Origin: a virus
Taxonomy: Duplodnaviria; Heunggongvirae; Uroviricota; Caudoviricetes
Direction: 5' to 3' (one strand)
DNA: 12,532 nt
IMG/VR virus record: IMGVR_UViG_2548876964_000021
A model generated the notes under the pieces. That model was given only the letters and a program-made list of their open reading frames with translations, searched no databases and was not told the origin of the DNA. Both the position numbers and the translations under genes were made by a program. Numbering within the stretch: the first letter of the stretch is position 1; each line of letters begins with the position of its first letter. Of this stretch, positions 358-12,351 are shown piece after piece.

Positions 358-399
358 GTTCACAGATAAAACACTCTCCAGGAAACCCGGGGCGGTTCA
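1..399 (+). mobile_element. Right-hand part of an IS3-family insertion sequence (IS629/IS1203-like), cut by the window edge
   Basis: The transposase frame is open from base 1. After its stop (355-357) the sequence ends ...CCCGGGGCGGTTCA at 399, i.e. a 5'-TG...CA-3' IS3-type terminus (reverse complement TGAACCGCCCCGGG...). The exact end at 399 is from recalled IS629 terminal sequence plus the TG/CA rule and was not verified. Confidence 0.65.
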
Positions 400-657
400 G
401 TTTTCGCCCTGTTCAGCCGACGTCAGACAACGTTGTTCGCCTTCAATCACTGTCGTTGGCTTCTGAACATCGCGGATCCAATATCTGACCGTTGCGCCGC
501 GCAAAAACGGGAATTTAGACCGGTATTTGAACGGCACCCGGATGAAACCCGGTTTAATTTCCACATCACCAAGTTCTAAATGCGTGATGTCCTTGCGTTT
601 TAGCAAATAGCGATCGGCTAAGGCTAACGCAAGAGCGCATACACCCCAGCCAATCAT
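397..657 (-). pseudogene. IS-truncated second gene of the lysis cassette (first 86 codons of a membrane-anchored protein; candidate antiholin, endolysin or spanin)
   Basis: The ATG at 657 overlaps the holin stop in an ATGA arrangement. The N-terminus MIGWGVCALALALADRYLLKRK is a hydrophobic anchor followed by basic residues. The frame runs into the IS terminus, and its stop codon TGA (399-397 on the minus strand) is the TGA of the IS end TGAACC..., so the native 3' part of the gene is missing. Confidence 0.5.
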
Positions 658-983
658 TTCCCACCTCCCTTTTTCACCAAACTTGTAAGAACATTCAGAA
701 TGCTATCGATATTCACTCGTTTCATCCCTGAAATCACCTCATGACCGTTATTGCTGGCTATCGTTACCATTAAGTACGTAATTGATAACTCCCAGCCCTC
801 GTGTTGCCCCAATAGGTACGCCACCGCGCCAGCTGTCACTGCAACAAAGATCTCCGTAACCAATCCCAACAAATTGCCAGACTGGCGACCGTCTCGGACA
901 TCCATCAGGAACGTGCCTATCCCACCAATTACTGAAAGCAGGAGCGCAATAGCAACTGGAGCTAATTCCTGTGTGTCAAGCAC
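654..983 (-). CDS. Holin, lambda S-like (109 aa, 2-3 transmembrane segments, basic C-terminus)
   Basis: GTG start at 983 preceded by AGGAGG with 6-nt spacing; an in-frame TGA upstream excludes a longer ORF. Predicted transmembrane segments: APVAIALLLSVIGGIGTFLM, LLGLVTEIFVAVTAGAVAYLL, LSITYLMVTIASNNG; C-terminal tail ...LVKKGGGK. The pattern resembles lambda S as recalled (GIG...RGR...ITSV...IGS...KRF). Four-base overlap with the downstream gene. Confidence 0.6.
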   Translation of the reverse strand: MLDTQELAPVAIALLLSVIGGIGTFLMDVRDGRQSGNLLGLVTEIFVAVTAGAVAYLLGQHEGWELSITYLMVTIASNNGHEVISGMKRVNIDSILNVLTSLVKKGGGK

Positions 984-8932: not shown

Positions 8933-11900
8933 TCAACTCTCGCGTAGTCATTCATCAACGGATCATCAATTGACAGTGGTACCGTGCGCATAACGCCCGG
9001 CTGAGGCGTGCTGACCTTTACGACAGTTCCCTGGCCTTTCGCCGAGTCTTTGGTGTGCTCTTCAATCCTGGCAAGCAATGAGGTCATCTGCGCAAACAGC
9101 CGCTTCGTTTCACCATCAAGTGAAACGGTATTATCAGCCAACTGCATTGTCGGCTTGGCACCGGAACCGCCAAGGTCACTAATAACCTGTCCGTCTATCT
9201 GCATTCGACCAGTTGGTTGCTGCAAATCGTTGGCGGCAGTCGTCATCTGGGACGTGGAAGCTGGTTGAGGAGAATTATTTGAGCGCATTCCCCGGGCATT
9301 AATGAGTTTGTCATACAGTCCATCAATCCCCATTTGTGCGCCGAGCTGGTCAAAGTAACTTGAGTTGTTGGCCACCGGACGCGCCTCTTCAACTGGCATC
9401 GGGGTATCAACATACACATTGCCAGCTGCTGTTGCGGTCCCCTTCCCTCGTGCACGTTCTTCGAGCGTTCCCTGAACGACTTCCCGACGCATCCCCCGGC
9501 CATTCATGAATTTGTTGACCAGATCGTTAACGCCAACAGCATTGCCGATTTTGTCTACCAGACCGCCTTTCTCAAACGGGCTATCACCAGGGGTAAACGC
9601 CAGACCAGTAGACTGATCGATAACAGCGTTATCAGGCAGTGGTCCCCTCACTCCATATTGCGCCCCACCCTGTGCTCCTGCCCCAGGTGTATAGATTTCA
9701 CCACCTAAATAGCGAGCACGATGAGTATTGACCTTGATCGCGTACTCACGGTTTTCTTTCGATAAGTCACCAGTGCCTTTTTTCCACTTATTGATAGTGC
9801 CAAACCCAGCGTTATATGCAGTGATGGCCTCGTTTAAGTCTCCATTGGCTTGCTTCAGATACTTGCTCATGAGAAGAGCCGCAGCTTCTGCCGATTTCAC
9901 AGGATCAAATGCATCCTGTTCCGATATCCCTGTCTCTTTACGAGCAATACTCGTGAACTGGAACATCCCGAGTGCGCCACCACTTAACTTTCCATCTGGT
10001 GATCTTGTAAGCGGAGACTTTGCGTTAGGATCCCCTCCTGATTCAGTTGCAGCAATCGAGTAAAGAGTGCCTTCAGGAAGGCCATATTTATTCTCTAGTT
10101 CAGCAAAATACGGAGCCAACTTATCGAGATTTGCCTTACCTTCAGCGCCAAGGCTTCCGACTTTTACATCTAAGTTGCCATTGTTGTAGGTATCCGCAGC
10201 TTTCTGAATGTCATTCCTAGTGCCAGTAGTATTAAGCGACGATGATGACGAGCTATTTTGACCAATAGCTTTATCAATTTTCTGCAACGCGCTATTGCCC
10301 GTTTCTACGGCATTTGCATTGATAATCTGATTGGCAGTTTGTTTAACTGTTTTATTGCTATCTTTCGCTGTGTCCAGTGCCGCATTTATCACGCGGGTAG
10401 CAATATTACTCTGTTTGGCATCGGATTCAGTTTTAGAATCAGATGTCCCCTGGTGGCTATTAACCGGAACTTTTGACTCTGGAGTGATTTCTTTCGCATT
10501 AGCCTCGCCGATCGGATTGGGTATTTTTGATACAATCATTGCCGCAGGGGTATTTTTAACGGCATCAACCGCTGCATCTAATGCTTTACCTGGTAAATTT
10601 TTAACCCCATCCCAAATATTACCAGCCGCCTCTTTAATGTGTTTCCCTGGGTTCTTAATGAAATCAATTGCACTATCAATTGCATCACTGAAAACCTGTT
10701 TCAGGTTATCGACAGTAAAGAAGTCTTTGATGGCATCCAGCTTTTCAAGCAGCTTATTAGATGTATCGCTAAACCATGCTGAAACAGCATCACCAATCTT
10801 TGCTGTGTAATCATCGAACTTGGTAGAAATGGTGTCGCCAAGGTTAGAAATATATGTTTCTAAGTTGGTAATCCCACTATCAATGGCCAGGGCAATACTT
10901 TCCGTCGAAAATGATTGCAACATATTGCCGATATCCTCAAATCCAAGTGATTTGAGAACCTCACCAATGGCGCTGCTAATACCAGATACCAGTCCCCCCA
11001 TATCAAGAACATTAGCTAACGTATAAGCGGCTTTTTGCTGGAATGATGGATCTTGTCCTGATTTAAGCCCAAACGCTCGACGTTGCGCTTCTGTATCATT
11101 CCAACCGGTTACCGCACCATAAATACCTCCAGCCACTGTGCCGACTAGGGGAATTGCGCGTAACGCCCCTTTACCAACTGCCTTTAATCCAAGTTTACCT
11201 GCTGCCCGGGCAGCCAAATCTCCGCCTTCATGAGCGAGAGTCTTCTTGCCACCACCGCGTAGCATTCCTACAAGTTTCTTTGCCCCCAGAGCGCCAAAAG
11301 CGAGTGCTCCAGCTTTTTTCAGCATGCCACGCCCCATTAACAACGACGCGACGCCACCGGCCCCCTTCCCTAACAGGCTAAATAGTTTGGACAGCAAGCC
11401 GCCCTTCTTTTTACCGGTGTTTTTGGCTATCTGATCAAGGGCACGGAGAATCTTGTCATTGCCCTCTTTAATTTCGCTGGTCTGCTCCTGAAGTTCCTGA
11501 ACCGTCCGTTTTTGGGTGTTAACCTGAACGACATCGGCACTATTTTGCGATTTACGCCTAAAAAAACCTTTTCTACGGCTGTTATCGTCATTGCCACGAA
11601 TCACATCGGCAATAGACTTTCTGGCACCATTAAGCGATCCACCAACTTCTTTTGATATCCCGCCAAGCTCCTTCCCTGCTGCCCACAATGGACCAGCAAC
11701 GGCATAACCTAACGCATCGACGGCACGAGTCTCTGAAGGGTTACCTATGCCTTCAGCTACTTTTGACAGTTTTTTTAATAAACCTGATTCAGCATTTAGA
11801 CGCTCATCATCCTCTTTGCGCCTGGCCTTTTCAGCACGTTCAGCACGGGCATCTTCCGCTGCGGCCTTACTCCCTGACTTTCCAATAAAACGACCACGCG

Positions 11901-12351
11901 CATCGCGTTGGTTTTGGCTTTTTTGCGCACCGCCTTTTTGACCGAACATTTCGCGAGCGTGTTCGGCTGCTTCGGTCCGTTGCGCCTTTACATCTTCTGT
12001 TATAGCCTTCTTGCGTCGTTTTTTACCCTTTCGCGTAGTTGATTTGGCCTGCGGTTCCTGTAGAGCAACATCCTCCTGAACTACACGAGAAACGTCCCCT
12101 AAATTAAGCCGTTTCATTGCGTCAACAATAGGGTCTACTGATGGCGCATTGGCCACAAAGTCTGGCCGGGAATTTTCGATTGTGCGATTTAATGCCGACA
12201 CACTGCGAGAGACAGGATCAACAGTTGCAACTCGTTCCCCTTTCAAATCTTCAACAGCTTCCCGAATACCTGCAAGCTCTTCCAGCTCTTTCGCGCTGGC
12301 GGTTTCAACTGTCCTTATAACATCGTCAATATTGGCGTTTTTTCTTTCCAT
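8929..12351 (-). CDS. Tail tape-measure / injection protein with a lytic transglycosylase (SLT) domain (1140 aa); P1 Sit-like
   Basis: N-terminal about 700 aa is low-complexity, Lys/Arg/Ala-rich, with Gly-zipper hydrophobic segments (GGLLSKLFSLLGKGAGGVASLLMGRGM..., GALRAIPLVGTVAGGIYGAVTGW) typical of tape-measure proteins. SLT signature LPEGTLYSIAATESGGDPNAK...GALGMFQF...AITAYNAG is encoded at about 9760-10080. Size and domain content resemble P1 Sit as recalled; unverified. Confidence 0.85.
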   Translation of the reverse strand: MERKNANIDDVIRTVETASAKELEELAGIREAVEDLKGERVATVDPVSRSVSALNRTIENSRPDFVANAPSVDPIVDAMKRLNLGDVSRVVQEDVALQEPQAKSTTRKGKKRRKKAITEDVKAQRTEAAEHAREMFGQKGGAQKSQNQRDARGRFIGKSGSKAAAEDARAERAEKARRKEDDERLNAESGLLKKLSKVAEGIGNPSETRAVDALGYAVAGPLWAAGKELGGISKEVGGSLNGARKSIADVIRGNDDNSRRKGFFRRKSQNSADVVQVNTQKRTVQELQEQTSEIKEGNDKILRALDQIAKNTGKKKGGLLSKLFSLLGKGAGGVASLLMGRGMLKKAGALAFGALGAKKLVGMLRGGGKKTLAHEGGDLAARAAGKLGLKAVGKGALRAIPLVGTVAGGIYGAVTGWNDTEAQRRAFGLKSGQDPSFQQKAAYTLANVLDMGGLVSGISSAIGEVLKSLGFEDIGNMLQSFSTESIALAIDSGITNLETYISNLGDTISTKFDDYTAKIGDAVSAWFSDTSNKLLEKLDAIKDFFTVDNLKQVFSDAIDSAIDFIKNPGKHIKEAAGNIWDGVKNLPGKALDAAVDAVKNTPAAMIVSKIPNPIGEANAKEITPESKVPVNSHQGTSDSKTESDAKQSNIATRVINAALDTAKDSNKTVKQTANQIINANAVETGNSALQKIDKAIGQNSSSSSSLNTTGTRNDIQKAADTYNNGNLDVKVGSLGAEGKANLDKLAPYFAELENKYGLPEGTLYSIAATESGGDPNAKSPLTRSPDGKLSGGALGMFQFTSIARKETGISEQDAFDPVKSAEAAALLMSKYLKQANGDLNEAITAYNAGFGTINKWKKGTGDLSKENREYAIKVNTHRARYLGGEIYTPGAGAQGGAQYGVRGPLPDNAVIDQSTGLAFTPGDSPFEKGGLVDKIGNAVGVNDLVNKFMNGRGMRREVVQGTLEERARGKGTATAAGNVYVDTPMPVEEARPVANNSSYFDQLGAQMGIDGLYDKLINARGMRSNNSPQPASTSQMTTAANDLQQPTGRMQIDGQVISDLGGSGAKPTMQLADNTVSLDGETKRLFAQMTSLLARIEEHTKDSAKGQGTVVKVSTPQPGVMRTVPLSIDDPLMNDYARVD

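Follow-up and report, generated by a model that had tools for sequence, protein, structure and literature searches.

We analysed a stretch of DNA of 12,532 nt (hereafter the window) from the virus record IMGVR_UViG_2548876964_000021, which is the entire draft contig AICG01000097.1 (assembly GCA_000446245.1). The window begins and ends where the contig does, and its reverse complement is identical to AICG01000097.1 over the part compared. The window carries late genes of bacteriophage P1 on the minus strand, a fibre gene whose tip and chaperone are of the lambda type, an AT-rich island with an acetyltransferase gene and, at its two ends, part of the insertion sequence (IS) IS1203 and a short piece of the chromosomal gene htpG (Table 1). 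We conclude, with a probability of about 0.88, that the window represents the tail, tail-fibre and lysis region of a phage-plasmid of the P1 family (Punavirus) from Escherichia coli that makes Shiga toxin (STEC), and its fibre locus appears to derive from a Cin-type invertible switch.

Table 1. Features of the window, with positions counted from its first letter.
Feature	Position	Strand	Description
IS1203 right end	1-399	+	IS629 group, IS3 family; C-terminal part of the OrfB transposase (ORF 10-357); inserted in lydB
lydB remnant	397-657	-	LydA-holin antagonist, codons 1-86 of 147; the IS1203 end gives the stop codon
lydA	654-983	-	Holin, 109 aa; 100% to P1 LydA; Pfam Phage_holin_3_3
LPdar	1012-1030	-	Predicted late promoter with -10/-22 boxes; would drive lydA-lydB; 19/19 against annotated P1 LPdar
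Deletion junction	1043-1044	.	2,877 bp missing against JL22: lydC, cin, cixL, Sv' and the first ~100 codons of U'
U' relic and U'/U intergenic hairpin	1044-1275	+	Last ~68 codons of U'; 86.2% to P1 (locus L002 6515-6746, blastn)
AT-rich island	1276-2354	+	31-39% GC against ~47-51% in the backbone; carries the acetyltransferase
Sigma-70-like promoter	1582-1611	+	Strong candidate site (promoter scan)
Acetyltransferase	1739-2311	+	190 aa; left-handed beta-helix (hexapeptide) acyltransferase; phrog_2154
tfa	2355-2933	-	192 aa; lambda-type tail-fibre assembly chaperone; Caudo_TAP E 7.6e-43
S (fibre gene, whole)	2933-5782	-	949 aa; three-part mosaic
S tip (receptor-binding)	2933-3544	-	S aa ~746-949; lambda Stf / P2-like type; Collar domain (Pfam)
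S linker	3545-3843	-	S aa ~647-745; unlike JL22 and the P2-like prophage (alignment gap); partial gp37_C match
S P1-type part	3844-5782	-	Sc and the segment forming the right 0.6-kb C-segment inverted repeat in P1; 96.9% DNA identity to P1
Orphan cixR	4409-4434	+	TTCTCTTAAATCAAGGTATTGGATAA; inside S; 25/26 against P1 cixR (C to T); sole such site in the window
R	5794-6228	-	144 aa; tail-fibre structure or assembly; 99.3% to P1 R; phrog_2032
LPs	6259-6277	-	Predicted Lpa-dependent late promoter; would drive R-S-tfa; 18/19 against annotated P1 LPs
Gene 16	6307-7143	-	278 aa; baseplate or tail tube; 98.6% to P1 gp16
bplA	7143-8576	-	477 aa; gp6/J-like baseplate wedge; 99.8% to P1 BplA
pmgA	8573-8929	-	118 aa; 100% to P1 PmgA
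sit	8929-12351	-	1140 aa; structural injection transglycosylase, putative tail ruler; 97.0% to P1 Sit, full length
pmgB 3' end	12433-12490	-	Last 58 nt; P1 homology ends at 12490
htpG fragment	12491-12532	+	42 nt of a chromosomal chaperone gene (45 nt with the shared GAT), at the contig end

With AF234172 (NC_005856) as the P1 reference, and blastn for DNA and blastp for proteins, we found that positions 400-1043 match lydB'-lydA-LPdar at 99.2% identity and that positions 3844-12490 match the right inverted repeat of the C-segment, Sc, R, 16, bplA, pmgA, sit and pmgB' at 96.9%, while positions 1276-3843 have no P1 match. Over these 9.3 kb of shared DNA (97-99% identity) the order and orientation of the genes, LPdar and LPs, and the place of cixR inside S are those of P1. 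On this comparison the common gene order and strand reflect homology and not chance, and the synteny and high similarity to the P1 late morphogenesis and lysis genes are those of a Punavirus. A first-pass annotation of the window, which had worked from the letters without database searches, had proposed a P1-like gene order, had assigned Sit, BplA, gp16, R and LydA, and had asked for BLASTP against P1; the five proteins are 97-100% identical to their P1 counterparts, as it had expected. pmgA had been missed, gp16 had been given as 279 aa and is corrected to the shorter product with its start at 7143, and the fibre gene starts at the ATG at 5782, not at the TTG of a 978-aa open reading frame (ORF).

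The domain content agrees with these assignments, with an SLT domain in Sit (aa 748-867, E 2.8e-25) and Gp6-like and Baseplate_J matches in BplA (both Pfam). The second lysis gene that had been placed beside the holin is present and in the same orientation, but it is not whole: the Pfam model LydB (PF16084) is matched at positions 1-86 of 147 (E 1.4e-56), and this part is 97.7% identical to residues 1-86 of P1 LydB. By comparison with P1, the genes fall into three minus-strand late units, namely sit-pmgA-bplA-16, R-S-tfa behind LPs, and lydA-lydB behind LPdar. The first of these is transcribed in P1 from LPsit, which lies beyond the window. The start and stop codons of bplA overlap those of its neighbours, in keeping with translational coupling. 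Both boxes of the predicted LPs (-10 and -22) are intact, its sole change lying in the spacer, and with LPdar conserved as well, late transcription would be expected to depend on Lpa, for which a gene is annotated on the plasmid described below.

In a megablast search of complete E. coli genomes, positions 1-12493 of the window are 100% identical to p08_4347-1 (NZ_CP077546.1), a circular plasmid of 101,763 bp from E. coli O111:H8 strain 08-4347, and a sister strain of 08-4347 gives a like match, also with 100% identity over window 1-12493. In the same search at least 80% of the window lies at one place in 57 complete E. coli genomes. The window itself cannot show its flanks. On p08_4347-1, beyond the segment that corresponds to the window, there are genes for a ParA-type ATPase and ParB, a RepA-type (RepB-family) initiator, Phd, Doc and C1, and furthermore for Lpa, terminase/pac, a Cre-like integrase, Ref and a Ban-like helicase; a lambdoid or Mu-like prophage context was not found around the segment in the p08_4347-1 flanks. 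The suggestion that the window comes from a P1-like phage-plasmid is thus borne out by repA, parAB, phd/doc and c1 on a circular relative, and we infer that the source strain carries the same replicon. P1-like phage-plasmids are common in E. coli. Among O111:H8 STEC, P1-like plasmids are a recognised feature (PMC13596339).

Next we consider the fibre switch. In P1 and in its close relative, the P1-like phage-plasmid JL22 (ON018986; PMC9603915), the tip lies on one arm of a segment that is inverted by Cin between cixL and cixR, which lets two alternative tips be expressed. Using P1 Cin as the query, we found no match at E<=1e-3 (tblastn) in the window or anywhere on p08_4347-1, and the annotation of that plasmid lists no invertase. 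The window lacks lydC and the Sv' tip, and it also has no inverted repeat of 25 nt or more and no second cix site within 3 mismatches of the conserved 17-mer. That is, the locus has neither an adjacent serine invertase nor two inverted cix sites with alternative tips and chaperones. This agrees with the first-pass annotation, which had seen no cin-like recombinase and had proposed a fixed host-range module. Its further claim that there is no inverted second copy of the tip or chaperone holds for the tip, whereas the 3' end of U' survives on the plus strand (1044-1275).

The nature of the loss is apparent from the comparison with JL22, whose gene order is lydB, lydA, lydC, cin, Sv', U', serine acetyltransferase, tfa, stf-type S and R. 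Window 400-1043, 1045-3544 and 3837-12490 are colinear with JL22 at 95.7-99.5% identity; on the JL22 locus (L004) the first two blocks correspond to 1501-2144 and 5022-7519, and the stretch in between, 2145-5021, is absent from the window and is the sole large difference between the two. The missing stretch begins 13 nt past the -22 box of LPdar and ends within U'. What is left of U' is part of a 78-aa ORF (1012-1248, plus strand; a tail fibre assembly protein according to PGAP), the first ~10 codons of which are the complement of LPdar. This ORF is 79-83% identical to aa 100-177, the C-terminus, of the U' proteins of P1 and JL22, has AGGAGG upstream, and matches the 78-position profile phrog_3792 from end to end. 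C-terminal-only Tfa stubs recur in phage genomes, one example being an 87-aa stub in another locus that we compared (L022 5617-5880).

The second remnant is the cixR site inside S, whose changed base is the canonical C in both cixL and cixR of P1 and JL22. The same T is found in another cin-less plasmid of this lineage (L001 10010-10035), and the change fits a relaxation of constraint once the invertase had been lost. A truncated U' and an orphan cixR are what a deletion leaves, and we therefore read the window form as derived from a JL22-type ancestor by one 2.9-kb deletion, which would have taken out lydC, cin, cixL and Sv' along with the 5' part of U'. The truncated U' argues against the cin-less form being ancestral.

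The first-pass annotation had placed the acetyltransferase island where P1 has its C-segment, and it could accordingly be supposed that the island replaced the C-segment and cin in one substitution event. The island does lie between lydA and tfa, at roughly the position of cin and the C-segment in P1. However, JL22 holds the island between U' and tfa, within an intact cin/C-segment region where it coexists with lydC-cin-Sv'-U', and the island is found in JL22 and in ~16 further E. coli plasmids that do not have the deletion junction. Furthermore, the U' relic separates the island from the junction in the window itself, so that the gain of the island and the deletion are distinct events. We thus consider a one-event substitution highly unlikely, and the claim that the island took the place of the C-segment does not hold.

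Having a single tip, chaperone and cix site and lacking an invertase, the phage would not alternate its host range as P1 does; it would make one fibre type, and its host range would be fixed. Cin-family invertases complement each other, and the remaining cixR is nearly intact (25/26), so an invertase of the host or of a co-resident element (Pin of e14, or of the Gin or Min type) could in principle act in trans on cixR and a cryptic partner and keep the tip switchable. Against such rescue, the window has a single site even with 3 mismatches allowed in the 17-mer, it has no inverted repeat of 25 nt or more, and there is no alternative tip or full chaperone left to express. The base change in cixR, found in this lineage and not in P1 or JL22, fits relaxed constraint as well. 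We regard a tip that still switches as extremely unlikely, and the locus as the fossil of a switch. In relation to the known Cin/Gin/Pin/Min systems (the P1 C-segment, the Mu G-segment, the e14 P-segment and p15B), the window would descend from such a switch and keeps a single crossover site together with the stretch of fibre gene that makes up one of the inverted repeats; unlike a working Cin-type switch, it is without an invertase, a second site or an alternative tip.

We then turn to the fibre that remains. Residues 1-656 of S are 95.7% identical to P1 S and contain Phage_fiber_2 repeats (Pfam), and by analogy with P1 this N-terminal part, two thirds of the protein, would attach the fibre to the baseplate. 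The final ~200 residues, with the chaperone, are of the lambda Stf/Tfa type: S aa 746-949 share 63.6% identity with the lambda Stf C-terminus (orf314 residues 69-314), in line with the lambda-type tip named in the first-pass annotation. The Tfa of the window shares 88% identity with its lambda counterpart, 97.9% with that of JL22 and 95.3% with that of a P2-like prophage, compared with just 44% over 66 aa with P1 U. The start of tfa overlaps the stop of S (ATAATG), so that a Caudo_TAP chaperone lies directly downstream of, and coupled to, a fibre gene with the homologous tip, which by sequence is a lambda-type Stf/Tfa module. On the DNA level tfa and the tip (2369-3866) are ~92% identical to the lambdoid phages Turner, PhiR30_1 and 2H10 and 88.8% identical to lambda. 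The joined matches to Turner and PhiR30_1 (window ~2369-3866) run across the linker, but in two pieces with 84% query cover, and may thus leave the linker itself unaligned. The fibres of JL22 and the window differ in this linker of ~300-460 bp (window 3545-3836).

Compared with P1, the window thus has a lambda/P2-type tip and Tfa in place of the Sv tip and U, has gained the acetyltransferase island, lacks lydC, cin, cixL, Sv' and most of U', and has lydB interrupted by IS1203. Compared with lambda Stf (orf401/orf314) and Tfa, to which its tip and Tfa are 64% and 88% identical, and with the P2-like fibre modules, its tip is grafted on a P1 S shaft and a contractile P1 tail, and lambdoid phages are without the acetyltransferase. 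A tip from Stx phages was considered and rejected: the search with tfa and the tip returned no Stx-converting phage in the organism names or in the 30 listed records, and the many matches to Stx-converting phages in the whole-window search would stem from its IS1203 part (1-399). The coding region of the tip contains two 30-nt units in tandem (3222-3281; 73% alike), probably an ordinary fibre repeat.

The closest relative of the module is, on sequence identity, not a lambdoid phage but a P2-like prophage in the chromosome of strain 08-4347, which is the very strain that carries p08_4347-1. Window 1747-3544 aligns to this prophage as one colinear block at 93.7% identity (NZ_CP077545.1, about 2,430.5-2,432.3 kb; L026 6913-8710), and the block consists of the acetyltransferase, a 43-nt spacer, tfa and the tip; at the protein level the acetyltransferases are 88%, the Tfa chaperones 95% and the tips 90% identical. 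We found the chromosomal version of the cassette in ~465 E. coli chromosomes, including those of O157:H7, O111 and O104:H4. Other P2-like prophages have a 67%-identical acetyltransferase beside tfa, and in P2-like prophages with an H/G-type fibre module the acetyltransferase is convergent with tfa and separated from it by the same 43-nt gap as in the window. The plasmid prophage and the co-resident chromosomal prophage thus provide a concrete example of the exchange of a tail-fibre module.

Upstream of the acetyltransferase lies a sigma-70-like candidate site, and a hairpin at 2319-2346, read by eye, is common to this gene and the convergent tfa; the terminator scan flagged neither this hairpin nor that at 1255-1270, which have no T-run by its rule. 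The hexapep Pfam matches of the protein are below cut-off, and it aligns solely to the C-terminal beta-helix region of solved CysE structures. We rejected the name serine acetyltransferase (CysE), because the score is far below the equivalog cut-off and the N-terminal helical domain of serine acetyltransferases is missing. The predicted N-terminus (MLCYLIAIHFVIFGN...) is hydrophobic, and in JL22 a shorter version of 158 aa is annotated, starting from the Met at window 1835. A 60-aa ORF in the island (1281-1463, minus strand) has no PHROG match and was treated as non-coding.

Among phage records we found the island only in P1-like JL22 and vB_EcoM-Ro157c2YLVW. We sampled seven contexts of acetyltransferase homologues, four of which lie within the tail regions of P2-like prophages or at their margins; one is beside a phage integrase, one is ordinary chromosomal and one is ambiguous. 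The authors of JL22 noted the gene and termed its presence unexplained (PMC9603915), and theirs is the only paper that our literature search found on an acetyltransferase beside tfa in prophages.

We read the acetyltransferase as an independently transcribed 'moron' that travels with the tfa-tip cassette, and our best guess for its function is O-acetylation of a surface polysaccharide in the lysogen, that is, lysogenic conversion. A bolder hypothesis is that acetyltransferase, tfa and tip together form a mobile cassette for host range and receptor masking, exchanged between P1-like plasmids and P2-like prophages. Under this hypothesis, the acetyltransferase would O-acetylate the glycan (lipopolysaccharide or another polysaccharide) that the co-transferred tip recognises, and superinfecting phages with the same tip would be excluded. 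The evidence is circumstantial, comprising the AT-rich composition, the promoter-like site of its own, the convergence with tfa, the 93.7% colinear prophage copy, the homologues at prophage margins and the membership in phrog_2154, a family to which no function is assigned, and we hold this bolder hypothesis to be a doubtful conjecture.

The two ends of the window are a separate matter. At the left end, window 1-399 is 100% identical to the annotated IS1203 copy of p08_4347-1 and consists of the right 399 nt of the element, with a terminal inverted repeat that ends ...GGGGCGGTTCA at 399. The element has the features of the IS1203/IS629 group, namely a terminal inverted repeat TGAACCGCCCCGG..., an OrfB with a DDE (rve) domain and a 3-bp target duplication. 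Codon 86 is the last of lydB before the element, and in p08_4347-1 the target duplication at this site is GTT. A second IS1203 is located in pmgB of p08_4347-1, in direct orientation to the lydB copy and with the target duplication GAT. As each copy has its own 3-bp duplication, both are simple insertions. The P1 segment of the window (12,091 bp) lies exactly between the two copies and is thus flanked in the manner of a composite transposon and could be lost by recombination between the two IS copies.

Phenotypic effects of these insertions may be anticipated from the P1 operon structure. The IS1203 in lydB stands between LPdar-lydA and the downstream hdf-darA, so that polarity is expected, and the second copy separates LPsit-pmgC-tub-pmgB from sit-pmgA-bplA-16 and would disrupt the sit operon. 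With the antiholin truncated, dar polarity and the sit operon disrupted, this copy is probably impaired as a phage, either poor or defective. It is presumably still maintained as a plasmid, with parAB, repA, phd/doc and c1 intact on p08_4347-1.

At the right end, P1 homology gives way to htpG: window 12488-12532 has a 100% match inside htpG in 5,416 E. coli genomes, and the switch lies exactly at the point where related plasmids have their IS1203 insertion. A plasmid should not carry htpG, and if the join is genuine the segment of the source strain would be a P1-derived remnant linked to the chromosome by an IS1203-associated rearrangement, not part of a plasmid. A possible route is cointegration of plasmid and chromosome via IS copies, after which the IS would be excised along with a deletion beside it. 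For IS629 and the IS-excision enhancer of enterohaemorrhagic E. coli, excision with adjacent deletion has been described. The 6-nt overlap GATTGA, which the junction has in common with the pmgB'-IS junction, would suit such an event.

The other evidence points to a read or assembly artefact: the htpG stretch is only 42 nt long and lies at the extreme end of a draft contig, and the two complete genomes at 100% identity have a plain IS1203 at this position on a circular plasmid. Furthermore, draft contigs from at least 22 further samples end in the left end of IS1203 at the same pmgB base. The pmgB'-htpG join is in no PLSDB or complete-genome record, and its exact 35-nt pattern gave 0 matches in the contigs of species-representative genomes. 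The htpG 45-mer occurs in PLSDB only in chromosomes or mislabelled chromosomes, and in no P1-like plasmid. A chimeric read or an assembler error at a repeat boundary is the simpler explanation. We thus consider it likely that the htpG end is a chimera of this kind, and a chromosomal location of the segment rather improbable; the htpG tail calls for caution with the ends of draft contigs.

Next we examined how widely the cin-less arrangement is distributed. Of 5,426 complete E. coli genomes, 49 have the exact deletion junction (120-nt probe); most of the other ~480 genomes that match the probe do so with the lydA-LPdar half only. In every listed full-length match the carrier is a plasmid of ~90-100 kb, and the strains are mostly STEC-type or bovine isolates. 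The junction is identical in p08_4347-1 and in the plasmids of strains E2865, MBT-5 and others. The full acetyltransferase island is found in 65 complete E. coli genomes, and set against the 49 with the junction this leaves ~16 that have the island without it.

The STEC plasmids NC_013370 (of O111:H- 11128), pAUSMDU00014361_02 and p08_4347-1, together with the deposited phage genome vB_EcoM-Ro157c2YLVW (MH160767 / NC_050153), match window 400-12490 at 98.5-100% and share its cin-less arrangement; most of these relatives have no IS1203 in lydB and pmgB, and none of them runs into htpG. JL22 resembles the window in its backbone and in the acetyltransferase (sacF)-tfa-stf-type S module, and it keeps lydC, cin, cixL, Sv' and a full U', that is, an intact invertible segment.

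Some points weigh against our overall reading, in which the window is part of a P1-family phage-plasmid with a fixed, lambda-type fibre tip and an acyltransferase gene. The switch to htpG is the first. Virion formation and a narrower host range would be predictions for the cin-less lineage; vB_EcoM-Ro157c2YLVW is a deposited phage genome of this deletion type, of which our literature search found no published description. For the acetyltransferase, the scores stay far below the cut-offs of the curated models (CysE TIGR01172, 65.6 against 210.65 bits; EpsC, 77.5 against 150; WcaB, 56.5 against 194.65). The 100% match to a circular plasmid, the identical junction in other plasmids and the synteny with P1 stand on the other side.

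The arrangement is already known biology, with many RefSeq copies and one phage genome. lydC-cin-Sv'-U'-U-S is one of eight variable regions described for P1-like phage-plasmids, and the sacF and tfa substitution of JL22 is published in the same work (PMC9603915). P1 variants with a truncated cin or an incomplete C-segment, and presumed loss of host-range switching, have been published as well (PMC6906374). As an ordinary, already sequenced variant of the P1 family, the window has little significance beyond bookkeeping; what is mildly new is a defined 2.9-kb deletion that would lie behind a STEC-associated cin-less lineage, with a fossil cixR and a U' stub, and in addition the fibre-tip cassette that it has in common with a co-resident P2-like prophage, together with the uncharacterised acetyltransferase that accompanies the cassette.

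Finally, p08_4347-1 carries further genes that are accessory with respect to P1. There are several icd-ant-like antirepressor modules at ~5.1, 30.7 and 79.2 kb of the plasmid, an IS200/IS605-type TnpB gene adjoins a head-processing gene, and a gene with a RelA/SpoT domain is located near ref.

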